From contig MEDY01000087.1 in NCBI GenBank assembly GCA_001724265.1, positions 62,001 through 126,000 of the forward strand: a stretch of DNA of 64,000 bases, in the 5' to 3' direction. The position numbers were made by a program, and so were the translations under genes. Shown here piece by piece: positions 1,688-58,100 of the stretch. Within the stretch, counting starts at the first letter, position 1. The number at the start of each line of letters is the position of its first letter. This DNA is from Rhizaria sp. SCN 62-66 (Eukaryota). The notes under the pieces were generated by a model that was not told the origin of the DNA, ran no database searches, and saw only the letters and a program-made list of their open reading frames with translations.

Positions 1688-1719
<32 letters not shown>

Positions 1720-26300: not shown

Positions 26301-27461
26301 GTTGATAGCGCTACTGTCTTCGATAGCGTCGGCGGTCACGAAGCGGTCACTGATGCCGGCGTTGTTCATGTCGGCAGCAAATGCGCTGCCGTCAATGCCA
26401 ACGGCGCCGTCGAGCTCGGCGCGCCGCTGCTGCGCCGCCACCGACTCCGGCGTCGACTGCGCAGAGCCCGGGCCAGAGCCCGCGTTGGAGCTGGCGCCAG
26501 AGGTCACGCCGGAGCCGGCCGCGGAGCTTTGCGCGGAGGAGTCGGTGATGCCGGCGAATGAGCGGGCGAGGATGCGATCGTACGCGGCCAGCGGGTCGGC
26601 ACTTAGATTAGCCGCCGCGGAGGAACTGGCACCGTCCAGTCTGGAGCCGACAGCCGCGGAGCGACCAGCGTCCGTCTAGTTCGCGTAGAGAGCGGCGTAG
26701 GCGGCGGCGACGTCGTCGCGGTCACTGTCGTTGCTGTAGTGGTTATCGCTCTCTGCATCAGCGTCAGCGTCAGCGTCAGCGTGAGTGTCAGTGTAAGCAA
26801 CGTTAGCGTCTGCATCGACATCGTCGTCGTTGGTGACGTCGTCATCAGCGTCGTCATCCTCGGTGTAGGTATTGTTGCGGTCAAAATTAGTGTAGCGATC
26901 ACCAACTTGCTGCGCGGCCCCGTCTGTGCGAGCAAGAGCAGCGTCAACGATCGCATCTGCAGCAGCTGCCGCGAGGGCGTCAGTCGCAGAGTCAGTGTAG
27001 ACATCGGGGTTAGCAACGTGCGTCCTGTAGTCAACGACGTCATCCTCCTCGCTGATCGCGTCAGGGCCGTGCATGCCGCTGCCAGAGAACGCTGACGCGA
27101 AGCCAGGCGCGGCGGCCGAGGCTGGGGCGGAGGATAGCATGCGCGCGGCGGTGGCGGCGGCGGCGGCGTCGGGTGACAGGATGTGCGGCAGCGGCAGCGC
27201 GTCGGAGGGGGAGAAGAGGCGCCGCGAGGTGTCGGCTGAGTGGGCAAACGAGGACTCTGCCGTGCTGGGTGAGACGAAGGGCTGGAAAGCAGACGCGGCA
27301 GGGCGGGACGCGGCGGCGCGGTGAGGGGGGGTGAACGGAGCCATATCACCTGTCGTGGCCACTGCAGGGGCGCGAACGCGGTCAACCGCGGCCGAGGAAC
27401 CGGGATGAGGGTACGTCCCGGGTGGGTCGGAGTGACTGCCCGGGGCGCGTGGGTCGCTCAT
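17337..27461 (-). CDS. Giant Ala/Glu-rich coiled-coil protein, ~3374 aa if the single in-frame TAG at 26676-26678 is read as sense
   Basis: ORF 26676..27461 (ATG start) and ORF 17337..26507 are in the same frame, and the 168 nt between them is open. Long heptad-like A/E/R segments flank a Thr/Ala-rich region with TQT-like motifs. Stop is TAA. Confidence 0.8.
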
Positions 27462-27852
27462 TGTTGGCGAGTCAATCCCAAGACGTGGGACGTGTGTGCA
27501 GGTGGGAGGGGTTCGAACTGGACTAGGGAGGCGCGAATGGTTTTGAAGACAAGGTCAGGCAAAGGTGATATCGGATATTAAGAAGATTTAAAAAGCAGAA
27601 TCCGTATAGTAATACTCAAACACTTATTGGATTCAAACTATTTCAAATTACACGATCATATCGTTCGTATTTTTATGTTTGAAGACAGGCGCCAAAGTGG
27701 CTCGTTCAGCTGCAGTCGGCGATCGCCAGCCGCTCGGTTCGCAAAAAGTCGGTGGGGCCGGGCGCAAAGCGGTCAAGAGGTTTCCGCAAGAATGAAAGCG
27801 TTCGTTCAAACGTCCGTCAACAGGTCTTTCGTACTCGAAAGTTTGTTTTCCC

Positions 27853-30383
27853 ATGTCGGAAGTATTTCGCAATAAGAAGTCGCGTCGCCTTGAAGGCAAC
27901 GCCGTGTTGGAGCGCGTGGCTAAGGCGCCCCGCTCGGCCGAGTCTGAGCAGGCCCCACAGGCGTCGGCCCGCCAGGCGCGCCAGACCGAGATCGACGGTT
28001 TCCGCGCCCACATCCGCACCATGGACACTGAGCTGTTCGAGAGCAAGAAGCACATGAACCACGTGGTGGCGCTGCTCAAGTACCTGTCTGTGCGCTCCGA
28101 GGAGAACCCCGACGGGTTCCCTGTGGCCACGATCATCTCGGCCTCGCAGGTGCTGCGCCGCTTCTTCGTGCTCTACCTCCGCCGCAACGAGTTCTCGCTC
28201 TACTCAGCCTCGCAGCGCCACCAGGCCGAGCTCAACAAGAGCGCCGTGGGCAAGATCCAGGAGTGGCTGGCCACACAGCTGAAGAAGTACGTCGCCGCGA
28301 TGCTCGCTTTCGTCGCCTTCGCGCAGCGCGACGACGTCCCCAACGCGCTCCAGATCGCCGCGATCGACTCCGTCATTGACGTCGCCATCGTCGCCGCCGG
28401 CACCGACACCCAGGCGCTCTCTGCGCTCGACGCCTACGCCCCCCTGCCTCAGGTACGTCACATATCCGTCACATATACCACATATCGGTAACATATCCAC
28501 TTTCTCGCATCCAACTCGTGTGCTTTGCTTATGTTTGACAGATTCTTTTCACGGAGTTAAGATCTCACCTTGTATTGTCTTCTCTTTTTTTCTGTGTGTT
28601 TGCTCTGCGCAGCTCCTGATTGCGATTGCGGCCGAGCCGCAGCGCCCCACCGAGGTGACGGCGCACTTCACCGTCTCCTGGCTGGACCGCTACGACGACC
28701 TGCGCGTGGCGGTCCTGCGCGCGCTCTACAAGCTCGTCGCGGGCGGCGGCGTCGCGCACGAGGCCTTCGCCGCGATCCCCGTCGTCACTGCGCTCAGTGA
28801 CGCCGGCGCGCTCTCGGCGCCCGCGATCCACGAGAACGTATTCGCGTTGCTCTGCGACGTCAAGCCCAACCACCTCAGCAACGCCGTGTGCGTGCCCGCC
28901 GCCAAGCCCGTCAAGCCGGCCGACGCGCTCGCCCGGCAGAAGAAGTTTTTGTCTGACGCCTGGCTGGCGCTGCTGAAGCACCCGTTCTCGGCTGAGGGCT
29001 ACAAGCGCGTGCTGCTGGCCGCCGAGACGGTGATCATCCCGGCCGTGCAGAACCCCGTGGCGCTGGCCGACTTTCTCACCGACTCGTACAACCTGGGCGG
29101 CATCGCCTCGGTGCTCGCGCTGGGCGGGCTCTTTGTGCTCATCACAAAGCACAGCCTCGAGTACCCCAACTTCTTTCCCAAGCTCTACTCGGTCTGCGAC
29201 ATCACCGCCGTCACGGCTAGGTACCGCACGCGCTTCTTCTCCCTCATCTCGCTCGTGCTCTCAGGCTCCTACCTACCCAGCTACCTCGTCGCCGCCTTTG
29301 CCAAGCGCCTCTGCCGCCTCTCGCTGCTCGCGCCGCCGCCTGCCGCGACGTTCGTGCTGGCGCTGGTATTCAACCTCATCCGCAAGCACCCCATGATCTC
29401 GTCCCTGGTCAACCGCTCCATGGTCGTGCAGCGCGGCAACCTCAAGCCGTCACTCATGCCCGCGGCCGAGTTCGGCAAGCTCTACCGCCTCGACGGCAGC
29501 CACACCGTGGTAGACAACAGCGCCGAGGCCCAGGACTCGCACGAAGACGTCTCGGGCCAGGGCGCCGCCGCCGCCGCCGCCGAGGCCGAGGCCAGCAAGC
29601 AGGCTGCGCGCCCCATGTCGCTCTTCGCGGCGATCGACCGCGCGTCGGGCGCGGCGGCGGCCACGTCGCAGGCCGTTGCGGCGACATCGGCGGCGTCGGC
29701 CGCGCTCGGCGGGCTTATCCTCGGGTCCGGCAACACCATCCAGGTACGTTTGAACCCAAAATATCCCAATAACACACTCTATTTAATTTCATGATGTGTG
29801 ATTACATCTCACTGTGTTTCTGTCTATTCTATTTTCTGCTGTTCTCGCCTCCTCCTCGCAGGCGACTTCGATCGAGATCGGCAAGATCGTCAACTCTGCG
29901 CCCCTGCTGGTCAAGTCCGCGGCGACGGCGACGGAAGACGGGATGTTCGAGAACCACGACGGCGTGCAGGTGACTCTGGACGCCGAGGCCTGGCTCGAAG
30001 GCAAGGACCCATTCGTGGAGTTCACCAATGACCCCGCGGCGGCGTGCGCACTGCAGTCGTCGCTGCTCGAGATCCAGGCGCTCTGCGAGCATTACTGCCC
30101 CGACGTCGCGCGCCTCGCCAAGATGTTCTTCGCCGAGACGGCGCCTAAGGTCGGCCACGATATTGCGCTCTTCACCAGCCACTCGTACGCCAACATCTTC
30201 GAGTACGAGATCATGCACAAGAAGAACCGCATCGTTCCTAAGGCCTTCGAGAAGCCCATCACGCTGCTCGGCCGCAGCGCGCGCCCGCTGACGGCGGACG
30301 AGAAGTTCGACGACGAGGCGCGCGCGCGCGTTGCCGCGATCAACAAGATGCCCGGCGTGCTTGAGACCATCTTCTCAGCTTGA
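27853..30383 (+). CDS. NOC4: Nucleolar complex protein 4 (CBF/Mak21 domain), 750 aa, 3 exons (27853-28452, 28613-29743, 29862-30383)
   Basis: DFLTDSYNLGGIASVLALGGLFVLITKHSLEYPNFFPKLY, RYRTRFF, YLPSYLVAAFAKRLCRL and ALQSSLLEIQALCEHYCPDVARLAKMF match Noc4. Two phase-0 GTACGT..CAG introns. Stop is TGA. Confidence 0.92.
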
Positions 30384-30789: not shown

Positions 30790-30795
30790 GATGAC

Positions 30796-30830
<35 letters not shown>

Positions 30831-30847
30831 CGATGACGATGACGATG
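30790..30847. repeat. (GAT)n microsatellite with GAC interruptions
   Basis: gatgacgatgatgat...gatgacgatgacgatgacgatg in non-coding sequence between two convergent genes. Confidence 0.9.
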
Positions 30848-31481: not shown

Positions 31482-33122
31482 TCAAAGCAGCGTGAACTCC
31501 GGCAGCGGCGACTGCAGCAGCTTGGTGTGCACGTCCTGCGGCGCCAACCGCTGGCTCTTGGGCGGGGTCTGGGTGCCGGTGAGCAGCAGCTGGGCCGGGG
31601 CGGCGGCCAGGGCCGGGATGAGCGCCGGCACGGGCAGCGGGGCCAGCAGCGTCGTCGACGGCGCGTTGAGCGACACGCGGCGCTGACTCTGATTCTGGCG
31701 TTGGCCCGAGCTCGCGATATCGAGCGGAACAATGGCGGCATCAGTCGCATCAGACGCGAAGCTGTTTAGAGCGAAGCGCGGACTGCTACCGTGGCCGTGG
31801 CTGAGGCTGAGGCTGTGGTCGTGGTCGTGACTGCTGTTGCGCTGCTGGTGTGTACTGGCACTGCGCGCCGGGCTGTAGGTCGCAGAGGTCGCCGGCGAGC
31901 CGAAGCGCGACACCGGCAGCACCGCGGTTCTCGCGGCTGAGTGCGCCGAGTGCGCGGGGGTCGCTGCGGGCGCAGCGGCGCCGGCGGCGAGGCCCGGGAC
32001 CAGGGGGGCCGTGTACACAGACTGCTGCTGGTGGTGGTGATGCGGGTAGCCGCTGTTCGCGCTTGACTGCAGTCTAGAGAGGCTCTGTTGCGCGGCGGTG
32101 CTGTTGTAGCCGAAGCCGCCGCCGACTGCGCCGCCACTGACGGCGCTGCCGTTGGCGTAGGTGCTCACGGTCGTGACCGTGGGCAGCGGGGCCGGGGCGG
32201 AGAGCGGGAACAGCGGCACCAAGGCCACGGACGCGGGCGCAGCGGACGCATTGGCGGTGTGGAAGGACGGCGAAAACGAAGCACGTTGTTGCTGCTGTTG
32301 CTGTTGAGGGAAGAGCTGCGAGTGCTGATGCTGTTGTTGCTGAGCAGCACCAAAGCCGAACAGTGACAAGGATGACGCAGGCGGTGTGAACACGTTAGCC
32401 GAGTTGAAGCTCTTCCGCGTGGCTCCCGTCGCAGTCGTCGACCCGAGCGTGCGGGTGACGTTGCTGGCAGACAGAGACGCGCCGAACGCGTTCACGGCGC
32501 TCGCGCTCCAGACGCCGCCCGCAAACGCGCCGAGGCTGCCGCGGCTGCCAAAGACGGCGCCGTGGCCGCTGAAAACGAACGCGGGGGCCGTGGGAGAGCT
32601 CGCGTGCGCAGTTATGCTCGTAAGGGTGGAGGTGGAGCGGAAGCGCACCGAGGGCAGCTCGACGGGGGAGCTAAAACCCAGCCGCCGGGGCCACTGGGAG
32701 CTCAACACAGGGCTCGGAGGCAGCATGAACGAGGGACGGAAGGTGCCAAAGGGGCCCGGCACCGCGGCGCCCGCGGCCGCGGCGGCGGAGGCGGCGAGCG
32801 TGAAGCTGAGGCGGCGGCAGCGCATGTGGAGCGAGTCGGCACGCGGGGACAGCGGTGGCGACGCGTAGGACACCGAGACCTAACGGTGTTGTGCCTGCGC
32901 ATGACCATATGTGTGCAGCGTGGGGGCCGAGAGCTGGGCGTAGAAGCTGGGCAGCACTGGCGAGGTGTAGTAATGGCTCCGGGCGCGGATGACCACGGTG
33001 ATAAACTTGCCGAGGTTGCGGCGTGCGCGGCGCATCGCGAGCTTGGAGTTGGCCAGACGACGCAACGGCTCATCGGCGAGCGCGCGGCGCGTGCAGGACG
33101 CAACGCACCGCTGGCGGGCCAT
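31482..33122 (-). CDS. Uncharacterised Ser/Ala/Pro/Gln-rich protein, ~546 aa, with one in-frame TAG at 32880-32882
   Basis: ATG-initiated ORF 32880..33122 ends in TAG and continues in frame (GTC TCG GTG...) into ORF 31482..32873, which the track opens at a GTG. Stop is TGA. Confidence 0.65.
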
Positions 33123-35090: not shown

Positions 35091-35126
<36 letters not shown>

Positions 35127-38100
35127 TGGGAGGCTACGGGAACAACAATAACGACGGTTACGGCCACCACGGCGGCCACGGCGGCGGCCACGGCGGGAAC
35201 CAGCGCCACCACAACCACCACGGCCACCACGGCCACGGCCAGGGCCAGGGCGCGCTCGGCGGCGGCATGGGCGGCGGCTACGGCGGCGGCAACATGCTCC
35301 GCGGCGATCGCGGCGACCGTGGCGACCGCAACAACAGCAACAACAACAGCAACAGCGGTAACAACAACGGCGCCAACTCGCTCGGCGGCGGCATGTCATC
35401 CGCCTCCGATTCGGCCGCCGCGGGCCCCGGCGGCGCCAACTCGAGCGTGCCCCCCGCCGGCGGGCTTCCGGCCTCGCTCCTGGCGCAGCTCGGCATCCCG
35501 CCCGCCGTCGTCCTCGGCCTCCAGGTTCGTGCAAATGCCCCAAAACAGATCTAGCTCAGTCCTATTACGCATTCTTAGAATCACTGTAATGTGTTTCAAT
35601 TCATTGGCTTAATTTGTACCTGCAATACCAAATTGATCTATCTCCCTCACATGTTGATCTACATTTATTATTTTTCTGTTTCTGTTCTTCAGGCTCTCAA
35701 CTCGTCCGTGTCGTCGTCGGACGCGGTGCTGGAGCACGTAATGGCCTCTTGCATGGCCAAGTTCCGCCACGAGCTGCCCGCCGCCGACCTCATGGCGCGC
35801 TCGCAGCAACAGTTCCGCGCGAACCTGCACCACCTGCCGCCGCACCTGTCGCCAATCCCGACGCGGATGAGTCACACGCCGTTCCCTCCGCCGACGCCGG
35901 AGTCCGAGTCGTTCGAGGTGACCCACGGCCACAACGCCGAGGCGCCGCTGCCGACCATCCCGGCGCTCACGGCCGCCGCGGCCGCCGCGTCCTCCGCCGC
36001 CGCGGCGTCGGGCGTGGCCGGGGCCGGTGGCGCGGCGACGGTGGGCACGCCCCAGCCGCCGCCGCCGGGCCTCATGGTGCTGAGCGAGATGTGCAAGACG
36101 CAGATGGGTTCACGGTCGATCCAGAACCAGCTGCTCGAAGGCGACCCCACGTTCGTGGACTTCGTGCTGCGCGAGACGTTCGAGACTCTGTCGGACCTGA
36201 TGTACAACCTCTTCGGCAACTACTTGGTGCAGTCGCTAATCACTCTGTGCACGCCGCCGCAGCGCATGCGCATCGTGGCGCACATCGCGCCGTCGCTGAT
36301 GCCGCTGGCATGCGACAAGCAGGGCACGCGTGCCGTGCAGAAGCTCGTCGAGTGCGCGTCGACTCCCGTGGAGCGCGCCGTCATCCTCGACGCGCTGCTG
36401 GGCGGCACCGCGGCCATGGACGTCGCGGCCAGCGAGATGATGCTCGCTAAGTGCATCTACACGCAGGGCGCCATGCGCTTCCTGCGTCACGCCGACCGTC
36501 CACTGCTGCCCCCCCGCGGCGGCGTCCCCGTCCTGGGCACGCCCTCGCTGTGCCTGGGCTCGATGGAGCACTCGCCTGCGGCGCTGCGGCTCATGCATGA
36601 CGTCAACGGCTGGCACGTGATCAATGTTGCGCTTGAGTTCTTCCCGCTGCGCATCCTCATCACGTCGGGCATCATCGACACGCTCTACTCGGTCACGCGC
36701 GCGCTGTCATCTGACCAGCACGGCGTCGTGCTGCTCAAGAAGGCGCTCACGGTCACGCCCTCGTTCATGTACGTGGCATTCGCGCAAAGCATCATCATCG
36801 ACGCGCCCACGCTCGCCAACAACCAGTTCGGCAACTACCTCATCCAGCACCTGGTCGAGCGCGCGGCGGGCCTCAACGAGGTCAGCAACGCGCTCAACGC
36901 GCGCCTCAAGGACGACATCGCGGCCGCCGAGGCCAACGCGGCCGCGGGCATCGACGAGGACGCCGACGACGACGCCGCGGCGGCCGGCGCCGCGCTGCCC
37001 AGCCTGACCACGCCCTCGGCCGTGCCGCCGATGACTGCGGCGTCGGTTGCCGTCTCGCCCGCGCTCAACAAGCGGCCCGTGCCTGCCACGGCTGCGTCGG
37101 CTCACCTGCCGCGCTCGACGGGCAACATCGACGTCGACACGGCCAACCTTCAGGTCGCGGCCACGCTCGAGGCGCTGGCGTCCCTGCCAGCAGCGGACCG
37201 TGACCGCTACTACCAGATCAACACGGCGCTGGCGCAGGCCTTCCGCGGCTGCGTGCACACCCTGTCATGCCAGAAGTTCGCCTCCAAGGTCATCGAGCGC
37301 TGCCTCCGCGTGGGCGCGCCCGAGCTGCGCAACCCGATTGTGGCGGAGCTCGTGGCCGACCCGCAGGCGTTCATGACGCTCGTGCAGGACCCCAGCGGCG
37401 GCTTCGTGATCCAAAACGTGCTCAAAGTGGCTGACCTGGACCACGCCATGCACGCCGCGACGATCCTGCTGCAGCACATTCCGGCGCTGCCTCGCACCTC
37501 GCGGAAGCGCTGGGAGAAGCACATCGAGATGGTGCGCGTGCGTCTCTCGCTCGCGCAGGTCGCCAGCAAGAACGCCGCCGCCGCCGGGGGCGCGGGCGCC
37601 GCTGCCGCTGGCAACATCCCCGGCGCCGATGCCATCGCCTCGCTCGACGCGGCGGCCGCGGCGGCGGGCTTCGACGCCTCCTCGCCCCAGTCGACCAGCA
37701 GCTCGGACAGCAGCGCCGGCGCCGGTCACAGCGGCCACGGTCACGGACACGGACACGGCGGCCACAGTCATGGTCACGGTCACAGTGGTCACGGCCACGG
37801 CGGCCACGGGCGCTACCAGGGCGGCAACAGCAACAGCGGCAGTGGCCAACAGCAGCAGCTGTCGCTCGCATCGTACGGCCACGGCCCCTCGAGCCTGATG
37901 CTTGCGCAGCAGCAGCAACAGCAGCAGCAGCACCACGGCGGCGGCGGCCACAGCGGGCACCACGGTCACAGCCACCACGGCGGCGGCAGCCACAGCCACC
38001 ACAACCACCACGGCCCGCGCCACAATATGAACGGCGGCGGCGGCATGATGCACAACAGCGGCGGCAGCTACGGCAACCGCTCCGGCCTGGACGCGCACAT

Positions 38101-41773: not shown

Positions 41774-43656
41774 ATGTCTGAGGCCGCCCTCAAGGTACGA
41801 ATTGACCAGCTAGGATCCGGTATATCTTTGTATGCAGGGCCTCCTACTAATTGTCACGGACACGCTCACTTTAAGCACCAGATAAAGAAGCTCATATCCT
41901 CACACTTCATTTTCTTTTTGTGTCTGTAGGCTGAGTGCAAGGTGCGTATCATACTCTAATCTCTCTCGTTTCCTCTCACCACACACGTTTTTTCTCGTTT
42001 AGTCGGACGCTGCAACCTGCGTGTAAAGCCGGACATCCAGCCCGACTAAACCGATGCAACTATTATATTAACTATGACAACCCTTTTTCAAATGGCTTCA
42101 CTGCGGGCTGGACCCTTTTGTGATCTTTCTTGCCTTTCAACTTCTTGTATCTGGCGAGCCTCCCTTCGTGGCTCCCGGACAGACCGACCCTCCTCAAGCA
42201 TCTTCCTCCAAGCGTCTCGCGACTCAATCCCATATCTGATATCAACTTCGTGTTAATCCCCTTTGCACTCGCAACAACTTAGAACGCGTTCGACTTCTAC
42301 GACAACGACAAGTCTGGCAACATCGACTCGGCGGAGTTCGCCCAGCTCTGCGCCGTCGTCGGCGTTAAGACGTCTGCTGACGAACTCAGCACTCTCTTCG
42401 CTTCGGTCAACACCAGTAAGTCCGGCCGCATCGACTTCAACGAGTTCTGGACCTGGTGGTCTTCGACCGACAAGGCTGCGACGGCGAAGATGGCCGATAT
42501 CCGCTCCCGTCTCCTCGTTGCCCGTGGCTCTTCGTTCCTGTCCAAGTCCTTCACCAACAAGGTCGCCAAGAACGCCTCCGAAGGCGCCACCAACTTCGTC
42601 ATCTTGAAGCCCGTCTCTGACGTCCAGATGGGCATCAGCTACCAGGTCGGCTCTGACTACTCGCCCCTGACCGACGCCCTCTCGGTGGCCCCCGACGCGC
42701 TCGGAGCCCTCGCCTTCGACTTCACCATCACCTCCGAGGACGCCGCGCCCTACGCCGAGGCGATGCTCAAGCTGGTCGGCTCCGTCTCCGCCACGAACAT
42801 CTCTGCCTGCAAGGGCTACGAGATCCTGCGCCCCGAGCCGGGCGTGATGCGCTTGGTTTTCTTCCTCGGCGAGAGTGACATGTTCGACATCATCCCCGCC
42901 TTCCCGGTCAAGGCCAACGCCGCCCTTAAGTTCGGCTGGAACCTCGGCACGATCGGCGAGAAGGAGTTCGACATCACCCTGGGCGAGCTGCTCAACGTCG
43001 AGCTCTCGGCCACGCTCGACACGCTGCCCTTCGACGCCACCGAGCTCCTGCCCGCCCTCATCGGCAAGATTAGCGAGATGGGGCTGCCCGTCGACGACTT
43101 TAACAACGCCCCCGGCGTTGCGGACGTCAACAGCGGCAAGTTCAACACCACGGTCGACTTCACCATGGCCATCACGAAGCTCTTCGAGAGTCTCGCCGAG
43201 ACTCTGCCCGTGCCCGTGTCGCTCGACAGCAACATCAGCGACACCGTGACGGAGCTCGCCCCCATGTTCCTCTTGTCCGGCGACCCGCGCTCGCGCCGCG
43301 CGGCGATGCAGAACATCTCTACCGCGGACCAGGCGATGGACGTGCTCAAGATGTTCATCACCCGCGACATCCGCACCATCAAGGGCGTCCACGCCGAGCT
43401 CAAGGGCAAGTACGGCATGTCCATCGACCTCCTCAACTTCTTCTCCCCCGACACCATCGCGGGCTTCATCAAGGGCGCCGTGGGCGTTGCCGCGAAGATT
43501 GCCAAGGACCTGCCGATGCCGACGGACGAGGAGATCGCCGAGTACGACGCGCAGCAGCTGCTCGAGCTCCAGGGCGGCGAGGGCGACGGTGAGGACGACG
43601 AGGTCATCGCCACTGAAGCTGCCGACGGCGATGACGAAGTCAACTACGAGGACTAA
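41774..43656 (+). CDS. EF-hand calcium-binding protein with an uncharacterised C-terminal domain and acidic tail, 468 aa, 3 exons (41774-41794, 41930-41941, 42283-43656)
   Basis: Spliced start reads MSEAALK-AECK-NAFDFYDNDKSGNIDSAEF (canonical EF loop), with a second loop NTSKSGRIDFNEF. Strong C/G-ending codon bias. Stop is TAA. Confidence 0.85.
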
Positions 43657-44287
43657 GGTAATTTCTCTCTGTTGATGGTTGTGATCCCCTGACTACCACG
43701 CCATCTAATCGTTAAAAAGATTAAAGTAGAACAAGTGACCAGTGATTTGAGAACTCCTCGATGACCTAAGAGAGTATAGATATTCCTTGAGTAGCATAAG
43801 TGCTGGCTCATGGTGAAGATTAGACTGTGAAAAATACATAACATAAGCATGATGACAATTAGAAGTGATATAACGCTCGAGTCCGAAGATAACAGAGATT
43901 AATAGTAATTGTGCCCAAGTGTGTGACCAGATAAGCCCGCCGGAATTGGATCCATGACCGTCAGACCCCACGTTGAATTAAAATGCATTTCAGGGCAAAG
44001 GTGCCGTAACCTGACATTTAATTTATGTCACCGTCTAAAATGCGTGACTTTTTATACAAATTCAATTACTATCCTCTTTCTTGTGCGCTTATGAAGACGT
44101 AAACGTGACTTTGAAAAACTCACCTCTTCTCATCGGCTTTGACGATCCGCCTAGTTGTTCTGCTAGCAGTTATCCATCTCTAGAGCAACGGGGATCAGTG
44201 TAGACCTGTGTTTGTGTCAACTTCATTTGTGATAATTGTTAGGCGACCCACTTTCCGGTCTTGGTCAGCTTTGACTGAGCTCGGCAG

Positions 44288-47200
44288 ATGCCGGTGGCCC
44301 CATGCAACACCGTGTCGTCCTCGTCTGACGCCCCCGCATCCGCTGCGGGACGCCACAGCTCCGCTACAACAAGTAGGGCGCCAGTGGTTGCGGTGCCCAG
44401 CAATGGCAACAATGCAAGCACAACTCCTGTTATTGCAACGACCTGGGGGAAGTATCCTTCAGTCGTACGCACATCTCCCGTTCCTATCACAGTACCTGCC
44501 CAGGTAGGCCTCCACGCGAATGTGAGGAATGGTTACGATCGTGGCCACGACCGTAACTACAACGATGACGAAGGCAGCAACCGTGAGCGCGGCCAGGACC
44601 TTGCCCGTGGAAGTGAAGGCACCGCAAGTTACAACAGTCCCTCGGCGCAGGGGACTGAACCCCCGCGCTCTCTACACATTGTTCGTGCATCTGAGCGCCG
44701 TAACGCTGAGCAGGCGGCGAACGGGCTGAGCTCTTTGACTACCAATGTTATGTCTCCCAACAGCAATGGCACACAGCGTGTCGGACAACCAGGGAAGTCC
44801 ATCATCACGGCTAAGGGGAAGACCATCATCACTACAAGCAAGGGCAATTTGACCCCCGCACCCTTAAGTGCGACTACAGCAGTCTCTACAGGATCGGTTC
44901 CTTCCGGTCGGATCATTACGACGCAACGCGATGCTGCAACAGGAGCTGCACCGATGTCACTCACGTTCTCTGGCGCGAACCATGGCATCACGTTGACATC
45001 CGCCGTCCTCAGTCAGTACAACGCATACGTGCCAATTGCATATCTTGGCGACCCTATGAGCAACAACAACGTCAGCGTTGTGAACACTCCCTTCGGCCCC
45101 ATTCACCTGCCGTTACAGCTGCCTCTTCAGTATCATGCACCGGTTGTTCCCGACGACCATGCTGTGACACCGCCTCTCGCCCCCGCTATCGCCGAGGTCA
45201 TGCACCGAGAGCTCGCTGCTCTTCGCAATGATCAGCCCGTATCAATATTGTATGACGAGTCGGATGCTCACCGGCCCAAGACAAATCATAACACTAGCAC
45301 AACAAAGCCCATGAGCTCGCCCTCGGCTGACCTGGCACCTCTCAAAAAGGTGAATGAAATGGTGGATGTGTCGCCTCAAAATGTCATCTCCGTATGTAAA
45401 TTGCAATTGCACTCTGCTTGACTTGTTTTTCCTAGACAGAAAAAAAAGCGCGTATTGACGCTTCAAACACTGTGAAATTGTGATGTTCGATTGAATATTT
45501 CGTTCGTGGATCGGATGAGTACCGTACCTCCATTTGATCGTCGAAATGTAACGCCCACCGCGTCCTCTTGTTTTCACCGATACGCTATCAGTGTGCTGAT
45601 CTCTTGACTCACTCATATGTCTCACTCTGTCTTGGAACAATCTCTCTTGTTTTGCTTTTTCGCTTTTGTTATGCCTTGTGTTGCGTCGCTCTTTGATAGT
45701 CCAACAAGTTGAACATTGACGACTCACATGCAAAGCCCACTGTGTCTGGGATGTCCGCGCTTAAAGAGGCGACCGTCGCTGACTCAGTCAAAGCTGATCC
45801 CTCTAAGGCAGTGATGAGCGAAGAAGAGCGTCTGGCGCTGAAGGCTGCTAAGAAGAATGCCCGCAAGGAACAGAAGCTTCGTGAGAGTCTCGCCAGCGCT
45901 GATGCGGAGAAGGATGCTGCGGAGCGCGCTATTGCCGAACGCGAGCAGAAAATCGTTGCCAATGCGATTACTCCGTTTCTAGCTACGCTCCCTCCACGCC
46001 ATGAGGCCGCCGGCGACGCCACAGCCGCTTAGCCAGTAGTCGACGTGGCAGTAAGCAACGTAAGTACGGTGTCTGCTAGTCTAGAGAACGCAGCTCCTGT
46101 TCAAAACGCGCCTACCGACGAAGTATCGCAGGTCCCCTCCTCTGAAGCCGCGTCAGCTCCGATCATGTCTCACCCGGTCGTTCAGGTGGGTATACAGTCT
46201 ATCCCCGCTCAGTCTGCACAGTCCGTCCCCACCCGCGCCCCCCCTCTGTCCATCGCTGTTCCCTCAGCGTCAGCCTCAGTCCCCATGACCGATGGCCCTG
46301 CTCTCCGGAACCCAGACCAGTATCGATCCTCTCTATTTGGGACTAACACAACGACTCCTCGTCCTATCAGTGGTCCTGGACACATGTCTGGGCCTGGGCT
46401 TGGGTTTGCAGGTGACCACCGCCGAGACTCTTTGCACCGCCCCCCACAGTCATATCAGCAACAACAGCGTGGTGATCCTCGTGCTGAACGTGACCCTCGC
46501 GACTACTCCGAAGGTCGTAGCTCCCTTGATCGCCGTCCAGACTCTCGCAACTATGGCGACCTCCGTGACTACAGGAACCGTGAAAGGTATGAGAAGGATC
46601 GTGACTGGTACGAGAAGGGTCGTGACTGGTACGAGAAGGACCGCCGTGATCGTGAGCGGTATGAAAGGGAGCTGCGCGAACGGGAGCAATGGGAGAAAGA
46701 GCATCGGCTGGAGCGGGAGAGGCAATTGGCGTGGCAAAATCGTGACCATCGCGTTGCTTATGACCGGGACCGGGATCGGGACCGCGACCAGCGTGACAGG
46801 GACAGGGATTTGAGTCGTTATCAGGCTGAATATGAAGCAACCGATCGTCCCCGTTCTCAGCAGCTTGAAACCTCCCCTTATCCTCGTCAGAACATCAACA
46901 ACACCCCCAGCAGTGACAGTGAAGTGGCACCCTCCAATCCACAAGCTGCAGTTAATCTTGCGACTCGAACCTTTTCGTCCGCAACTGGTAACTCAGGACC
47001 TGGACTTGCAGCGCAACCAACTGCCGCCGCACCCCAGAGTACCGCAGATATCTTTCCCACTGCTGCATCTTACGCTCTTGGTCCCATCGGTCGACGTCCG
47101 CCCGCTCTTGCCACTCTCTCGACTCAAGTTGCGACTGGGAGAGTAGGGAGTCCTATCGACATCGATGACGACGATGATGATGGTGATATGCCTCCTCCGC

Positions 47201-50200
47201 TTGAGACTCTTCGTGGTGAGATTGTTCCGGCTACCGTTGTCTCAGCTCAAGGTGAAATCGCTTCCTTGAACGCTACATTCACGGCCAATGCGGCACTTCG
47301 ACGTATCCCCCGCAAATCATCGTCGGATGCATCATCAAAACCTGGAGACACAGAGGTGCTTCGACCAACGTCTATGGGGGTTGGTCCTCGGTACTCACTC
47401 CAGTCTGGGGACTCGGTTGACACTGCTTCCTCTGGGGCCGTCGTTGACCGTGCTTCAAGCCGGACAATGACCCCATCGAGCTCCGCGCGTGGGTCACCCC
47501 ACTTACAACCCGCACGCCACTTGCCGTCGACTTTGGAAAACATTCTCGGCCGGATCCAGGACATTGCGAGCGACGACGATGAAGCCACCGTTGTGCCCAT
47601 TTTTGACACTGCTGTAACCCCTCACGATGAGGCCCTGGCGATTGCGACCAGGGAGGCTAAGATCGCAGAGCGTGAAGCACTATTTCCCGACGAAGTTGCC
47701 CGCGCAGACCCGGAGGTTATAGCATTTGCGTTGACTCGGCGCCCCGCAGTGACTGAGGAGCAGGTTGCTGCTCTGCCGGAGAACGATATCATGCGCCGGC
47801 TCCTGACTGCGGTTGCAGATGTTGAACGTGCAGTAGAGGCACGGTTTGACCGCTACTTGCGCGAGATGATTGTAGTTCACATTCCTGAGCTTCGCAACCG
47901 CGATCACCGGACTTTGACTTTGGAGGAAGTTGAGTCGCATGGATCGTTTTTACTCCGGCAACCCCGCCCCGTGAAACCAGACAGTGAAAAATGCCCGCTA
48001 TTATTGACGCCAGGATTCATGATGTCGCAGCAGCTGGCCGAACTCGGTATCGATGCATTACGTGCCAGGCACGTTGCCCACATCGCGCCACTCCACAACT
48101 ACACTCAACACACGTTCGCCTTCACACTCTTATTCGTTTCATCTCTCAATTTCGCAAACTGTGACGCGGATCTGGATGCCAAGCTGTCTTTAGCTCGCAA
48201 TCAAGTTCAGTATGCCCGTCGTATGGCCCTCGCAGGGAATCCGCTTAATCTCGAGCTACCCCCAGTTGAGCCGCCGCTAGATGCTGGTTACGAACGCGCA
48301 CGTGTGCGCAAAGGTGTTGCTGGCATCCTCGACTGGTCCAAGGTGGAACGCTCTATGGTTCCGCAGCTCGTGCGTCTGACGAGTTCAGAGAAGGAGCTTG
48401 CCTTAAGCCTCATCGCCAACACAAATGCAAGGAGTCAGCCGCAGCGCACTTCTAAGCGCACGAGGGCGCCTCTCAGCGACTTCTCGTTACCTGTTGTAGC
48501 TCACACAACAGATCGTAGCGCTGTGCGGTCAGTGCGCATGTCCCAACCCTTGCCGAACATTTTTGCCTATGCCAACGATACATCGATTGTTGGTGAGCTT
48601 TTGCGCACCCTGTGTGCCGAAGTGACGGATATTATGGCTGACTCATACGAAGCCACGACTCAGGCAAGGCCGACTGCGCACGAGCTTGCGCACCTGCTTG
48701 ATGGAACTCTCGGTGGGCGTTTTGCGGCTGTCGCGTCAGTGGCACCCCCGCTAGAACCAACCACTCGCGATCGCGCGATCGCAATTGAAGCATTGGTGGC
48801 GGACGGCAAGATCAACTCTGAAGTGCTGCTCGCCATTGCCACATCACCGCTTGATGAAGTTGAGGCGCGGCATGTTGACCGCTGCATCGCCGTCGACCCG
48901 ACGATACTCCCCGGTCAGCCGGTCGCATTGACGGCATACACATTGGCTAAATCCATTTGGCCAGAGCAGGGTATGGATGCGACGCGTGTGTTACCTACCC
49001 CATGGTATGTGCAACCAGACTTTGTGATGCAAATCCGTCGTGCAGGTGCACGCATTCGAGCGCAGCATGCGCGATTGAATGCTCTCAGTACAGGTAGTAC
49101 CATGCAAGAAGCGGAAGAGGCAGCACGTAACGCTGCATTGACCAAGGGCGAGAACCTCAGCCCAGGACTTGTGCTGCAGCTCGTCAAGGAGGGGGCTGCA
49201 GTCGTGAAGCAAGGCGCCTATTTAGCTGCGTTGGCGAATTCAACATCGAGCTCAGACAAGTACTTCGCTCGCAGGTATATTCAGTCCCTTGAGTACATGC
49301 AGAGCCAGAAGGACATCGCGAATGCGATCAAGCTCGGGGCCTATGCCTCCGCTACAAAGGCCAAGACCACTACTAATACTGATGCTGCGACTGTTCGTAC
49401 CACTGCGGTAAGGACTGAATCAAGTAAGTCTGTCTCGGCAACGCGTATCGTCTCATCGGTCGCCTCTCAACCGGTGAAACGACTGCCCGTCGTTCCTGTT
49501 TTGACAAATTCCTCGGTGAGCGAAACTTTGTCGTCTGCAGACAAAGCAACGCGCATCAGCGCAAGTTCGAGTGCTAGCAAGGCGGAGAAGAAGGACAATA
49601 AAGACAAGAAGGACAAGCGCGAGAAACGCCCCCACGAAAGTGGCAGTCGTGAGCCCAGCCGTGACCGCGGCCCTGACCGTGATATGGACCGTAGTAGCAG
49701 TTCGCGTCATAGGACTCCTAACAGCGACACTCCGCATGTTCATAACAGGAGGCCGGCAACACCAACTAAAACCGCAAACATGACCGATGGTGACCGTGAC
49801 ACTGACGATGTTCAGCTCCCATTACCTGAGACGCACTCAAAGGAAACCACCGTGATGAGCGATGCGAGCACAAGCAAGAGCAAGGAAGTGGGGGCAGTTC
49901 GTGATGCTGTCGCGAGTGTTGCAATGACAGCAGCTGGAGCAAAGCTGACTGCGTCGACGGACAGCATCACCAACGGCAACGAGAGTGGGCACGCGAGCGG
50001 CACTAAAACTGCTGCATCCTCAACTCATGCCGCAAAACCGGTCGCACACTTAAAGATTTTGACCAATGTCAAGTCGGTGTCGTCTCCTGCAGCGAGTCCA
50101 ACTGCGCCTGCTTCAGCGAAACATGCCAAAGTAGGAGCCCTAACCTCACAACCGCCGCTTGAGTGTCGTTATCGTTGCTCAACGTGCACAGCTGAGACCA

Positions 50201-51096
50201 GAGAGGTGAGCAAGACTGTACCACGCTGCTGTGAGATCTGTCGCGGCCGCAATCTCACACCTATCATCGGCAATCAGTCTCCAGTTGCTTAGACGGTGAC
50301 ATCTGCAGCACAGCAACAACACGTCAAGAGCAACAAGAAAACGACATCCCTGTCGACCACATCGTCATCTGCATCGGTCTCAGGGCGCGTTCCACCAAGC
50401 AGCAGTCCCACTCTTTATCAGCGCCTTGTCGAATCCAGCAAGATCAGCAACGTGAATGCGGCAAGCACTCATGTCCCATGGACACCTAGTGTTCGTTGCG
50501 GCGGCGGCAGCGACGGGAATACGAGCACGCAAGCTGTTGACATCGGCAGCAGGGATATTAGCAATGAGGACCTTGCCGCTGCAATCTCAGGTTCAAGCTC
50601 CAACGATACTTCTGTCGCCCCAGTCTCTACGAATGTTCATATTAGCGGCGCTGTGGGAGCAACTGCTTCGGTCGAGAAGGTCACTGACTTTTCATTCCAG
50701 GCCAAGGAGGAGCCCGTCTTCACAAGTGTGCCTAACAAGCTTGCTGGAACTGTCGTGTCCGGCGCGTCTAAGTCCTTCACTGCCTTCTCTACTCTGCCAC
50801 CGCCGCCGCCATCGCGTCCCCTGCAGCAGCAACAGCAACAGCAGCCGGTGCGTAAGCCTGTTGTGCTGTTGCCGATGCAGTCTCCGTACGAGGCGCTAAC
50901 TGGTGCGGTGACGGTGGAACTTAGCAATGACGATGACAATGGTAACAACGACATGATGATGACACAAAATGATCTCTTTGGTCCTGCGTCCCTGCCTGTT
51001 GCATCGTCTGACTCCTTCGCTCTTCTATCTCCAGATGGAGGCTGTACAGCTGCTCCGCCCAGTGATCAGGCAACCTCTTCTGCTATGTCTAATTAA
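44288..51096 (+). CDS. Large uncharacterised protein (~2166 aa) with an RD/RE-rich tract and a CxxC-CxxC zinc ribbon, 2 exons (44288-45391, 45700-51096), two in-frame TAGs (46030, 50290)
   Basis: Donor GTATGT at 45392 and acceptor TGATAG| at 45699. ORFs 45709..46032, 46045..50292 and 50296..51096 share one frame and are separated only by single TAG codons. Final stop is TAA. The 5' start is uncertain because CAG|ATG could be an acceptor. Confidence 0.75.
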
Positions 51097-52352
51097 GCGA
51101 TGCGGCAGCTCTGCGGCATCAACATCATCGACCAGTAATTTTCTATTGAGGAAGACTTTCCCAATGGACGTCCCAATGAAAGGTCTGCAACAAGCTACAA
51201 TAGTGTTTAAAAAAAAAAAACTCTACCTATTAACCCGTCTATATATAATGAAACAATCACAAGATCTGCGTCTACTAGCATGTAGCATCGCACGCGTAAC
51301 TCAATACATCACATCTCGGCCCACAATGATGGGGTACATGTGTCGCGTTGCGTGCACGTATATTTGTTTGATATGAGTGCGCATATAACATTTATGAAAA
51401 GCGAATTGTTTGAAATGTTTGTTTATGATTTTATTTTTGATCATGTCGAGGCTCATACCAGCAGCCCTGTCCCGTCCGAACGCACTATCATAGCAGTGCG
51501 GCATCCTATCTCGTCGCCATCATCACATTCGTGTTGTTTGTGAGATCGCAATATAGATATAGAAATGCCGCGTTAAAGAAAAAGAAAAAAGAAAATAAAC
51601 CTATTAAACCAGCACTGCGAGAAAAGCAGTTGTTGGCAAATCTCGTTTGCACATGCGAAGGCATTGAGATGAGTGAGTACACCCAAAAGAAAAGAAACGA
51701 AAAAGAAAGAAAAACTGCAAAAACAAAAAAACAAAAATTATAAAATACTAACGATTTTGTAAAATAAAGTTGACTTTAATGCCAATAAATACAAAGCATG
51801 GGAGTATAGTGTGATGCTTATCACAAAAAGCAAACGACACGTCGCAATAACAACAAGCGAACCAATCAAGCGGCACACTCTGGAGAGACTTGTGCACCAG
51901 CACATGGAAGCAGCGCCCCAATGGATGATGAGTGGACGGCGTCACCCACTGCAAGAGACGTACGCGTGTGCCTGCTATCCGCATGCAACGACGACCGAAG
52001 CGGGGTTAAGCGGCGTTGAGCATCACTTGAGAAGCGGCGCTCATTCGACTGTTTAAGACAGTGAGCAGACCGCTACGCAGCCGCATCACATGCCGGGCAA
52101 GCAGCCACAAGCAACCGTCGTTTGAGCCGTGGTCGACTCTCTGTGAGAGAGTGCACGAAATGTGGTATAGTGCTGCGATGACGATACAAAACGAACGTGT
52201 GCAGATCAAACGCTCGACTGTTGGTGACGTTGGTGTTGCCTGCGCACGCTAAGAGCGAGATAACACGCCGTCGCAGTGCTGCGCACCGCTGCTGACTGCC
52301 CGGGTGCCGCTGCGTTCGCCTGCCGCGCGGCCGCTGAACGGAGTGGGGCCGC

Positions 52353-53192
52353 TTACTCGTACTGCTTGGTGACGAGCTTGAGCTGCGGGATGAGGCGCGA
52401 GTCGACCTTGTACTCGACGCGCGACAGCACCTTGCGCTTGATGTCCTCGGGGAAGTCGGCGGGGAAGTCCCACGTGTCGGTGAGTGCCACCGTCTGCGCC
52501 TGGACCTGCTCCAGCGACACCGGGTGGTTGGGGAACATGGCCTGGAACGGGTGCTCGGGACCCGGGTAGACCTTGAGGCGCGCCATCTGGTTCAGCTTGT
52601 GCTTCGTCTTGGGGATCATACCGCGCACGGCGTGCAGAAGCACGCGTTCGGGGGCGCGGTTGCGCCACTCGATCGCGGGGACCTCCTTGAGGTTGCCGAC
52701 GTAGCTGTGCGTGGGGGGCGTGTAGGGCAAAGGCAAAGAGAGAAAGGGGACGGGGGGGAAGCAAAGAGAAGATTCCGGGAGTGCAAGAAAGAAGGGGTTT
52801 GTCCAAAAGTGAGTTAAAAATGCCAGAACTAATGACATAGGTCATGCCCGAAAAAGCTAGAGCAAAGCGAGAGGGTGAGTTAGCGCTAAAGCACCAACGT
52901 GCGAGTGTGGAGTGAGACAAAACAAAAAGCGCGAGCGTGCGGGTCAGCGTGGAGGCGAGAAGGGATGTACGTACCCAGTGTGGCGACGGTAGATCTTCTG
53001 GTCCCACTTGCGGCCAGTGAACTTGATGTCCTTGACGTTGACGACGACAACGGTGTCGCCGCAGTCGACGTTGGGGGTGTAGGTGGGCTTGTGCTTGCCC
53101 ATGAGCACAGTGGCGACGTGCTGGGAGAGGCGGCCGACGATCTGCGACTTGGCGTCGAACAAATGCCAGGACTGCTTGATCACCTTACTCAT
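52353..53192 (-). CDS. MRPL13: Mitochondrial (bacterial-type) ribosomal protein uL13, 189 aa, 2 exons (53192-52975, 52704-52353)
   Basis: WHLFDAKSQIVGRL...LMGKHKPTYTPNVDCGDTVVVVN...FTGRKWDQKIYRRHTG|YVGNLKE...AVRGMIPK...RLKVYPGPEHP. Intron of 270 nt (GTACGT..CAG). Stop is TAA. Confidence 0.95.
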
Positions 53193-54091
53193 TGGTGCCG
53201 TCCTGGTGGGACAACAGAGGAAGTAGGGGAAGCATGGAAGGAAAAAAGGGAATGTCAGTCAGGCGGTGGGCGAATGTGGCTGAACGGCGACTGGGAGGGA
53301 GGCGCCCAGGGACACAGATCGCGCAGAAGAGATACATTATTAAGTGCGAAGGTAAAACAAGACATGCTCAGTCATGAAAGTGTTATAATTTATCTAATGA
53401 TGAAGGACAGAGCGTGCATTTAGAGCTCAATCGAAGGCCTCGGTCGAGCCCGAGAAGACCGTGGGCCGGTTGGAAAAGTCTAGCCGCCCCCGGTCAAAAC
53501 ATGATTTGGGAGCCATAAAGACGTCTTAAAAGGATAAACTGTGTATTGAAGCATGATTTAAACATGCCAGTGTACTTTTGTAACACATATTGCCACTGAA
53601 ACCCGGACCACGTACGCACATCGCGCACTAATCCGCTCCGAAGCGCCGTCTTGGACGCCCCAGCTCAGACTAACCGAGTCCCAAGCAGCACGCTGATTCG
53701 GATCAAAACAGCCACGAAGCAGCGCTTCTCCCACCCACCAGCACGCCGCGCCCGGTCGCCGCGCGTCACCGCGCCCCGGCACACCCCCGTGGCCCGGTCC
53801 TCGCGTCATCACGGTTGGACGGGGCTCGCAGGGCAGGCAGAGGTGGGGCGTGGTGTCAGACCGCCTCGACAGCAGAAACGGCGACGATGGGCGGGTCGAG
53901 AGAGCGACGCGTGCGGGGGCGGGGAGGACGGGGTGCGCGCGCGCAGAAAGCACGCCCAGTCACTCACGGATCCGTACAAACTGCGCGGCGCGTCCTCGCG
54001 CGGGCGCGGTGGGCGGGCGGGCGGGAGTTGAAGGTGTCGCCATAGTGTGGCGACAGAATGAGAAACGAACGCAAACAAGGGGGAAGGGAAC

Positions 54092-54720: not shown

Positions 54721-55176
54721 TAGAAAAGAAACAACCTAACTTAGGGTCGACAAATGGACAACAAAGCAGCGGCCTCGTCATGGCCGAAGAGGCCCGCTTA
54801 GGCCAAACCGGTCAACCGAATTAACCATCATTTTTCGGAACCTGTAAATCCCAACCACTGGCTGCGAGCTGGTGTGACCACGCTTTCATTTAAGACCTTT
54901 GCAAGAAGGCTAATATTATTATTATTATTATCTACGTACGTTGAAGTAAACTTTTCTGTCTCATCCAAATTATACTAAGTTGCCAATTTATACAATGATG
55001 GTTATTCCCTTCAACGACTCCCCCGTACAACAGTCGATCGGCTGTCGACCCCCACCGTCCTTCCTTCGACCATACCAGCCTCTGGCGCAGTGAGACCGCA
55101 CTCAATAGCTACAACAGCAAAGGACTAGGGCGGCCACACGTTAACGTCGGTGCTCTTAGAGCTGAATTTAGGTTAA

Positions 55177-58100
55177 ATGCTATTAGCTTCTTCTAAGCCG
55201 CGCCTCAGTAAGTCGCTTGTGGCCGTGGCGATGCTTGTACAACTACTCGCAGCGATGTTACCTGTGCCTGCTGTAGCAGCCGGGGGCGGGATTGACTGTC
55301 AAGCTAATGCGGAACAAAAGCCAATTCAGTTAACCCCGCAGCTTGCGTTGCTAGCGGGGGACGTGATTAGCTTCCGCGCAGTACGTTCATCAACCGCCTC
55401 TGTACACACTTCACTTCAAGTCACTTTAAGTCACAAACATCGCTACTTTCCTGTTATCATTCGATAGGTCAAAATTTATCAACCACACGCTTTTTGTAAT
55501 TATGCGTTGCTTTTTGCCTAGAATTATGGCACAGTAACTGGTTATCTTGCTCCTCAAGATACGACTGCCTCGAGCAAAGACTGTTCGACTGTGCCACTTA
55601 CAGTTGTAAAGGAGCAGTCGCGTACAACGCAGGTATTTCGTAATGAAACTCAAACATGTCGTTTATCAGTGTTTTATAATAGCTTTACGTTGTTTTTCCT
55701 TGGAATCTGTGAATTCTACAAAGATATACCTTGTTTAAGAACGCTGACATCGCACGCATCTTCCTTCCCAACCTCTTGAATCTCTCTCACACACTGCAGT
55801 TCATCATCGTCCCCGTGGCTGTGCTCGACGATGAGTCCATCGACGTCGCGTCCCAGACGCTGCCCACAGCGACGACGACCGCGCCGCGCCTCGTGTCGAC
55901 AGTGCAGCTCATCCATATCACGGACGGGCGCATGCTCGGCACGCGCGCCTGCTCTACCCCGCGGTCTGTGTGCAACTCAGCGCCGGTGTTGCTGCCCAAG
56001 TCGTTCACCTACCCGTGCAACCACACGATGAAAATGTTCAACAGCATCTGGGACCTGGAAGCGCACAACATCACGGCGCAGGCGTACCAGGCGCTGCTGA
56101 GGGACCGGTCGGAACAAAGTAAGTGAAAAGTTACATATAGATCACTGATCACAAGAGATCTCTCTCGAAATAATCGCTGTATATATATTTTTCGCTCGTG
56201 GGTAATGTATCTGACGGTTTTCCTCCTTCATTTTGGTTGTCTTTGATTCAACTGTGTTCATCACACTTTGCGCGTAGCTGATGCGACTGGTCCGACGAGT
56301 CTGCTGCCGACGGCGCCAGGACTGATATTCCCCTCAATCCCCAACATCAGTGCAAACTCACAAGGCAGTGGCTTCAACATCTTCAGCAGCAACAGTAACG
56401 TCAAGACTGCCAACATCAGCACGAGTGGTGAGAGCACAAGCTCGGCAGGCGCGACTGCGATCAACGCGAGCGCAAGCGAGGCTGGCACTGAAGCTGACAA
56501 GGACGCAGGAGGCGTCGACGCCGCAATCGAGGCGGCAATGACCGCGGCGGCGCTGTCGCTCGCGGAAGACATCTGCCTCGACGAGACAATTCGTGGCAGC
56601 GGGCCGATCAGCGCGCTCGGTTATCAAAGTCGAAATAGAGGCGCTGCGCGCACATTCAGCGCATCGGCCCAAAGCCAAGCCACAGGTCATAGCGCTGACG
56701 CGAATGATATTGTTGACTATGATGAGTATGATGATGATCTCAGCAATGATCTTGATTAGGATAGTGGCGGACTCACGGGGAAACGACGCGTGAGTCGCGT
56801 CTTTGCCCCTCGCTGGCAGCCATACGGCTCCGCAACGCGCGCGCGCAGTCACTCCACAGCTACTGGTCGCAGCCACACAACGCTCGCTCACAGTCATCTC
56901 GACACGGCGGACCAACACAGCAGCAGCAGCGAACCCGTCAACAGTGCCCCTGAGGGCGGCCTCGTGCGCAGCGGCAAGCACGTGCGCGTCAGCGCCAGAG
57001 CGGAGCGGCGCCACGCGGAGGCGGAGCTCGCCGCGGCGCCAAACCCGCCCGCGGCGAGGCCGAGCACCGTCTGGCGCGACCTGCGCGCGCAGCAGCGGCT
57101 CCTGCAACAGCAATATGAGCAGCAACAGCAGAAACAGCAGCAAGCGCAGCAGCAACATCAACGGCTGAAGAATGAGACGCCGTCGAACGAGGGTCTAGGC
57201 GGACATACGCACAGTGTAAGCACTTTAGCAACAGGCAGTGCAGCTGCAATGGCGGCGGAGACGCGCGACAGGCGTGACCGCAGCACGATGCCAGTGAGAT
57301 CGCAGTCACCGCAGCCGTCACAGTCGCCGAGCAACAGCGGTGCGCAGGCGCATAGCAGCACTGGTGACCCACAGTCACTTGGGACAAACCCGATGTCGCA
57401 AAATGACAGTTACAGCGCCAAGTCAGGCGGTACAGGTGCACACTCAAGTCCTGAAACTGCACGAAACGCAGTTATCGCAAGCGAGAGTGACGCCGACAGT
57501 GAAAGTGGCCGTGAGCGTGCTGAAGCTGCAGTCTCGCGCGAGCGCGCGGAGCAGTACCTCACCACTCTCGAGCGCTACGGCAGCAACCCTGCTCTGCTCA
57601 GGAAACAGCTCCAGTGGCAACCACTCGACACAACCGGCGCCACTAAGAGCAGTGCAAATACGAGCCAGAACACGAACTCCGCGGAATCGGCGTCAACAAG
57701 CACTGGCGGGGCTGCTGAACCCACTACCGCTGCCTCCGAGACCGCTGCGGCTGCTGCTGCGTCCGAGACGACGGTGGCGACGGCGGCAGCAAGCACGACG
57801 ACCGAGGCCGTCATGCCGGGCACGATGCTCGGCAGCGGAAGCGACGCCACGGACCTCATGAACATGATCAACGTCGGCGGGTTGGCCTCGTTCCTGTCGA
57901 GCAGCGGCGGTCTCACCGCGGGTACGGGCGTCACCACGCCAGGCCAGTCGCAGGGCGTCGAGGCCACGGCGGCGGCCGCAGCGGCCACGGCCACAGGCTC
58001 GCTGATCGGGCTTGACCCGAGCCAGATCTTCAAGCCGGGCGATTCGCTGGGGCTGCAGTCGACGCAGGAGAAGATGCTGCAGTCGCAGCTCAGCATGGTC

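Follow-up and report, generated by a model that had tools for sequence, protein, structure and literature searches.

We analysed a 64-kb stretch of contig MEDY01000087.1 (forward strand, positions 62,001 to 126,000; assembly GCA_001724265.1, Rhizaria sp. SCN 62-66), called the window below. Five TAG triplets in it (sites 1 to 5, Table 1) lie in frame with long open reading frames (ORFs) that continue past them. Three of 15 neighbouring genes, designated A, C and D, are affected, each being otherwise an intact ORF of 1125–3112 codons; site 2 adjoins a fourth gene, B. At sites 1, 3, 4 and 5, chance, introns, separate tandem genes and error in a single assembly all fail as explanations, which leaves translated TAGs or very recent truncating mutations. 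On balance we lean towards the reading that this organism decodes UAG rather than terminating at it and keeps UAA and UGA as stops, a translation that we infer from DNA.

All five TAGs were found at the places given in an earlier note on this DNA. The continuation of the frame, put there at about 265 to 3,100 codons, was measured at 267–3112: 3112 open codons follow the TAG at site 1, 465 at site 2, 1419 at site 3, 267 at site 4 and 1125 at site 5. The probability that a frame stays open by chance was estimated under a first-order Markov model with 5000 resamples per stretch. It was 0.0024 for the 292 codons upstream of site 1, 0.011 for 110 codons at site 3, 0.0002 for the 267 codons downstream of site 4 and 0.007 for 170 codons at site 5, so a chance open frame is ruled out at these four sites (P 0.0002–0.011). 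It is not ruled out at site 2, where 110 codons gave a probability of 0.28, which is not significant.

Coding character was scored by codon log-odds, trained either on the same gene or on 13 ORF bodies. For every flanking stretch the score was positive in the frame of the TAG and negative in both other frames. The extensions at sites 1 and 3 scored 0.42–0.52 (0.43–0.52 and 0.42, respectively) and that at site 5 scored 0.33–0.34; the site 4 extension scored 0.17–0.23 in frame 0 versus -0.34 to -0.57 in the other frames. The extension at site 2 is weak, at about 0.07–0.15 (0.065, versus 0.53 for the gene body). At site 1, the 103 codons from the TAG to the next ATG are coding-like (0.41–0.43, with a fractional G+C content, GC, of 0.72), and 12 ATGs lie ahead of that next in-frame ATG. 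An inferred upstream exon gives gene D at least 265 coding codons ahead of its TAG. By this measure frame 0 is favoured on both sides of sites 1, 3, 4 and 5; the signal is weak for site 2 and for the stretch after site 5.

True spacers served as a negative control. All nine had a GC of 0.39–0.50 and a best-frame score of at most 0.04; the TAG flanks had a GC of 0.55–0.72, and by this composition and codon score separate tandem genes are ruled out. The absence of an AT-rich gap was borne out as well: no site has a low-GC stretch nearby, the lowest-GC window of 100 nucleotides (nt) within 300 nt of each TAG being at 0.44–0.60. The observation of a coding frame on both sides of the TAG therefore holds for four of the five sites, and site 2 is without statistical support.

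The organism has spliceosomal introns. The seven that were mapped are 118–341 nt long with a GC of 0.36–0.49, have donors GTACGT, GTTCGT, GTGCGT and GTACGA (consensus GT[ATG]CG[TA]) or GTAAGT, and have YAG at their 3′ ends. No consensus donor was found within 600 nt upstream of sites 1 and 5; at sites 2, 3 and 4 the closest ones lie 226, 528 and 393 nt off, within GC-rich surroundings. On sequence grounds introns over the TAGs are ruled out, since nothing like the mapped introns lies close to them. At site 4 a single frame-keeping GT..TAG pair exists, GTGAGC and TAG set 87 nt apart, a multiple of three. This candidate is unlikely as an intron, because a Cys-rich motif (CxxC..CxxC) would lose half its length with it, because the seven mapped introns are all longer and less GC-rich, and because an RNA-derived contig of run X6 (49979–50236) continues unspliced through its donor.

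Several more in-frame TAGs, passed over in the earlier note, have a trivial origin: they lie inside introns, at intron ends or in a leader. The frame of exon 1 of the PUF gene runs into its intron and meets a TAG there. In the EF-hand gene, two introns flank a 12-nt micro-exon (41930–41941, plus strand), and a spliced X6 contig links 41795 to 42281 with 9 letters between. The TAG at 3590 on the minus strand, a candidate sixth coding site, was dropped as the AG end of an intron, and one more in-frame TAG lies in the 5′ leader of the JmjC gene, four codons ahead of the start.

The TAGs were also compared across runs, a comparison that took in sites 3, 4 and 5; sites 1 and 2 fall outside the compared stretch. 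The three covered sites were all identical in contigs from other studies: TAG 46030 in record 3 of run X2 (43036–46960), TAG 50290 in record 4 of the same run (47248–53037) and TAG 56757 in record 14 of run X4 (55835–57244). These identities rule out error in a single assembly.

None of the 15 gene models ends in TAG; nine end in TAA and six in TGA. The earlier tally (10 TAA, 5 TGA, 0 TAG) was right in its zero and needed correction in its other counts, because introns had been overlooked: the NOC4-like gene is split by one or more introns, as judged from homology to proteins P0006 and P0007, and its real end is the TGA at 30381, not 29794. For the NOC4-like gene, the L13 gene and the Ras gene with its CAAX box, homology or conservation of the C-terminus establishes where the gene ends. 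After the 15 TAA and TGA terminators the frame closes within 2–48 codons; after the TAGs it stays open for 267–3112. For an expected TAG share of 15–30% of stops, the probability of finding 0 of 15 is 0.087 to 0.005, in a small sample. Leaving aside PUF exon 1 and the pieces bounded by the TAGs under study, no non-overlapping coding-like ORF in the window ends in TAG.

A standard code would put the main ORFs of genes A, C and D behind 7–12 upstream ATGs and upstream ORFs of 73–261 codons. Under scanning initiation, so many upstream ATGs and ORFs should block translation of the main ORF. Gene C, despite its two TAGs, has no frameshift and no TAA or TGA over 1781 codons, and is therefore not like an old pseudogene.

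Weighing against decoding are the following observations. TAG is used about five times in some 15,700 codons, in three or four of the 15 genes. Every TAG lies near an end of its gene, no further in than about 263 codons from the start or 267 from the stop, which is where truncating alleles are best tolerated. The tail after site 4 scores 0.170, below all 300 gene-body chunks (minimum 0.201), and the 164 codons from site 5 to the next ATG score about 0 (0.01–0.08), albeit at a GC of 0.66 that is unlike any spacer. That TAG is the only stop found in frame is a weak argument: with the codon usage of the window, 66% of one-step nonsense paths give TAG, and the probability of four out of four is 0.19. 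No RNA-derived contig among those listed (X6, X7) bridges a TAG, and no tRNA gene, hence none with a CUA anticodon, nor any other RNA gene was found in the window by ARAGORN or Rfam. In-frame TAGs are absent from the window's conserved genes (NOC4-like, Ras-like, mitochondrial L13, JmjC, PUF, ankyrin, EF-hand and PhoD-like), and none of the TAGs coincides with a residue that homologues conserve, the kind of site that would reveal translation and the amino acid. The earlier note had called reassignment probable. Reading through the TAGs is indeed the best explanation at four of the five sites, where chance, introns, spacers and assembly error are contradicted; 'probable' overstates the case, because of the missing conserved residue, CUA-anticodon tRNA and RNA contig, the low usage, the weakness of the TAG-only argument and the unsupported site 2.

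Homology gave no sense codon with which to align the TAGs. Two word-based searches with gene C gave only self matches for the whole protein and no match for its last 567 residues; when the last 1200 residues were searched against a set of 1.84 billion representatives, again only the protein itself came up. With a cut-off of 0.001, genes B, C and D and the TAG extensions had no Pfam match (for gene A, the 262-residue extension was scanned). Paralogues within the window that might align a TAG to a sense codon were not found, and the eRF1 gene is not in the window.

Three other explanations have to be set against decoding of UAG. If the code is standard, the TAGs would be recent nonsense alleles, that is young pseudogenes or tolerated truncations in fast-evolving dispensable orphan genes, with downstream ATGs or truncated products sufficing or the genes being lost. 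Although we regard this as unlikely, it draws support from the share of one-step nonsense changes that yield TAG, from the closeness of all sites to gene ends, from the codon scores below gene bodies in the site 4 extension and after site 5, from in-frame TAGs being as rare as a stop would be, and from the failure of gene C, the TAG gene searched, to find a homologue. Such alleles would, however, have to strike three of 15 neighbouring genes that are otherwise perfect ORFs, twice in gene C with no frameshift or other stop beside them; they would have to be fixed in the contigs of other studies at three of three covered sites; and they leave the absence of TAG among 15 terminators unexplained. 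That absence is equally unexplained if UAG is a stop and these particular UAGs are bypassed at the level of RNA or the ribosome, through adenosine-to-inosine (A-to-I) editing that turns UAG into UGG, a process of filamentous ascomycetes, or through programmed or leaky readthrough by near-cognate tRNAs. We consider such a bypass distinctly improbable. Restorative editing of premature UAG is documented in Fusarium in the available text of three papers (PMC10776026, PMC5496914, PMC11156358), and, in the partial accounts available, it prefers hairpin loops and a U at -1, the latter true of any UAG by definition. Site 2 does lie in a strong hairpin (32862–32897, minus strand; 6-bp stem, 8-nt loop holding the TAG; z -3.62, reached by 0 of 200 shuffles), and none of the listed RNA contigs spans a TAG to speak against editing; yet a significant hairpin occurs at one of the five sites, the other z-scores being -0.20 to +1.19. 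Fusarium has a genome on the order of 14,000 genes. The 71 pseudogenes restored there according to the accessible part of one report (PMC10776026) are well under 1% of genes, against three of 15 here. As to readthrough, gene C would need two low-efficiency events. The sequences after the TAGs (ACGGAC, GTCTCG, CCAGTA, ACGGTG and GATAGT) all differ, with +4 contexts as given earlier and no shared readthrough motif, which upholds that claim; none matches a known readthrough motif, and no unusual downstream structure was found (123-nt folds, z -0.92 to +1.83).

Least probable in our view, and only barely credible, is that the gene models are wrong, in that the TAGs end upstream ORFs or small genes, or lie in unconventional GC-rich introns, and the continuity is a coincidence of GC-rich DNA. 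Site 2, with its probability of 0.28, fits this account. So do the weakly coding stretch after site 5, the 87-nt pair at site 4 and the overlooked introns that explain several other in-frame TAGs. Against it stand the open-frame probabilities at the four other sites and the TAG flanks, whose GC and codon scores resemble those of none of the nine spacers or seven introns. At site 4, moreover, the candidate intron would remove half of the cysteine motif while the X6 contig reads through, and the extension has no ATG for 194 codons with which to start a gene of its own.

Should UAG indeed be decoded, it would be no efficient terminator, and ribosomes would pass the UAGs of genes A, C and D with insertion of an amino acid; UAA and UGA would end translation. 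If the published UAG-only codes are a guide, the likely means would be a CUA-anticodon tRNA unable to pair with UAA, along with an eRF1 that recognises UAG poorly. A UAG that is rare and confined to weakly biased, low-complexity orphan genes would fit either early codon capture or an inefficiently decoded codon. We tentatively raise the possibility, which we are more inclined to doubt than to assert, that the organism has lost its UAG terminator and is at an incipient stage of codon capture, with UAG gone from gene ends and back, at about 0.03% of codons, in a small number of genes under weak constraint. Such a stage is predicted by codon-capture and unassigned-codon models; to our knowledge no nuclear stop codon has yet been described in it.

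Table 1. Position of the TAG sites, of the genes around them and of control introns in the window
Feature	Coordinates	Strand	Description
Gene A	17337..27464	-	ATG 27464 to TAA 17337; about 3375 codons; Ala-rich, coiled-coil-like, low-complexity
Site 1	26676..26678	-	TAG, codon 263 of gene A; 262 open codons upstream
Gene B	31482..33122	-	Low-complexity ORF, TGA end; possible N-terminal extension from ATG 33122
Site 2	32880..32882	-	TAG 19 codons upstream of first ATG of gene B; doubtful as internal codon
Gene C	45751..51096	+	ATG 45751 to TAA 51094; about 1781 codons; two in-frame TAGs; orphan
Site 3	46030..46032	+	TAG in frame, after 93 codons of gene C
Site 4	50290..50292	+	TAG in gene C, then 267 open codons, the first 194 without ATG
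Gene D, upstream exon	55801..56118	+	Inferred from splice consensus and frame; codon log-odds 0.30
Gene D, inferred intron	56119..56277	+	159 nt, GTAAGT..TAG, GC 0.38; exon joins 56278 in frame
Gene D, main exon	56278..60137	+	TGA end; holds in-frame TAG 56757
Site 5	56757..56759	+	In-frame TAG in gene D; upstream codon log-odds 0.33–0.34
PUF-gene intron	35525..35692	+	Control, non-coding; 168 nt, AT-rich, two in-frame TAGs inside
EF-hand gene, two introns flanking micro-exon	41795..42282	+	Control; TAG 42280 is an intron 3′ end

The window is GC-rich (0.49–0.74 in 2-kb windows) and carries long ORFs on both strands. Its host, with DNA of about 62–65% GC, is an uncultured, intron-bearing microbial eukaryote from wastewater and bioreactor samples, and the stretch recurs in metagenomes and metatranscriptomes of bioreactors, wastewater and activated sludge, in eight studies. 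Pfam found these eukaryotic domains: ankyrin, JmjC/cupin, CBF/Mak21 (NOC4-like), Pumilio, EF-hand, Ras and PhoD-like. No further DNA of the organism was found in collections of genome contigs and viral contigs. A metagenome scan with a NOC4 alignment gave 80 loci, none of them close (best identity 52%, with a segment of 62% in locus L076), and there was no in-frame TAG in its 145 high-scoring segment pairs. Seven of these loci (L016, L028, L032, L033, L039, L040 and L073) have an in-frame TGA inside the tblastn alignment, which could reflect introns or TGA read as sense.

A short AT-rich region (27560–27853) that looks like a shared divergent promoter separates gene A, on the minus strand with ATG 27464, from the NOC4-like gene, on the plus strand with ATG about 27854; the AT-rich promoter region of gene A lies beyond 27560. 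A Ras-family small GTPase gene at 6371–7283 (plus strand; Pfam Ras, E 7.6e-31) has at least two exons and ends in a CAAX-like CTIL followed by TAA; it was probably absent from the gene list of the earlier note. A mitochondrial-type ribosomal protein L13 was named by eye from ORF translations. Its gene (52353–53192, minus strand) has at least one intron and a TAA terminator, and is overlain out of frame by a TAG-terminated ORF of 311 codons (52249–53184, minus strand) that is spurious. At the L13 gene a second X2 contig diverges from the window, mostly at every third base, and so represents a related species or a paralogue in the sample. At 40827–41592 (plus strand) there is a Ty1/copia-like reverse-transcriptase/RNase H fragment, its family named from motifs (a YVDD motif and a copia-type pol stretch); frameshifts and stops break it at about 40.8–41.6 kb, and it is uninformative on the code. 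The stretch 53525–54055 is covered by contigs of X6, at depth 39, and of X7, the two runs of RNA type. It has no obvious ORF, Pfam domain or Rfam family, and could be a non-coding transcript, a small-ORF transcript or an untranslated region.

Gene callers split the TAG genes, and gene C is stored in the protein database as two pieces, P0027 and P0028; the annotation of this organism's metagenome contigs is probably wrong for that reason. In the available text of two reports, nuclear codes that separate UAG from UAA are confined to a handful of lineages, and those described are all mature, with UAG in most genes (PMC5304391; PMC11687900). If our reading is true, the organism joins the few known nuclear codes that reassign UAG alone, among which its very sparing use of UAG would be unusual. 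Another lineage unrelated to the others would mean one more independent origin. Such low usage, if found across the genome, would give a rare look at how the reassignment of a stop codon starts, while the codon has yet to spread.

Among known systems, the restorative A-to-I editing of ascomycetes shares with our case intact genes broken by a single UAG and a small share of codons concerned, as far as the accessible text of the sources goes (PMC10776026, PMC5496914, PMC11156358); unlike it, our sites have the hairpin-loop context in one case of five, and the share of affected genes is much larger. The ambiguous codes of Condylostoma, Parduczia and Blastocrithidia likewise place a standard stop codon inside coding sequence, but in the parts of the papers available two or three stop codons are affected there, are frequent in frame and also terminate near the 3′ end (PMC4967479, PMC12153298), whereas here TAG alone is affected, is rare and ends none of 15 genes. 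The UAG-only reassignments known from the same kind of partial sources are those of the rhizarian exLh (Leu) and Iotanema spirale (Gln) (PMC5304391), and of phyllopharyngean ciliates (Leu, Gln), Protocruzia tuzeti (Gln) and Scotinosphaera (Ser) (PMC11687900). In the UAG-only ciliates 78–91% of genes have an in-frame UAG (PMC11687900), and exLh has 384 UAGs in 71 genes (PMC5304391). Compared with every UAG-only code in those texts (PMC11687900, PMC5304391), usage in the window is lower by one to two orders of magnitude, which also counts against decoding, and no conserved gene here has a TAG; the host, GC-rich and intron-bearing, is not a ciliate. The likeness to the UAG-only codes lies in the pattern of stops: every in-frame stop is TAG and the terminators are TAA and TGA only, with TAA the commonest (nine TAA and six TGA), as in exLh, for which the available text gives 56 UAA and 15 UGA (PMC5304391).

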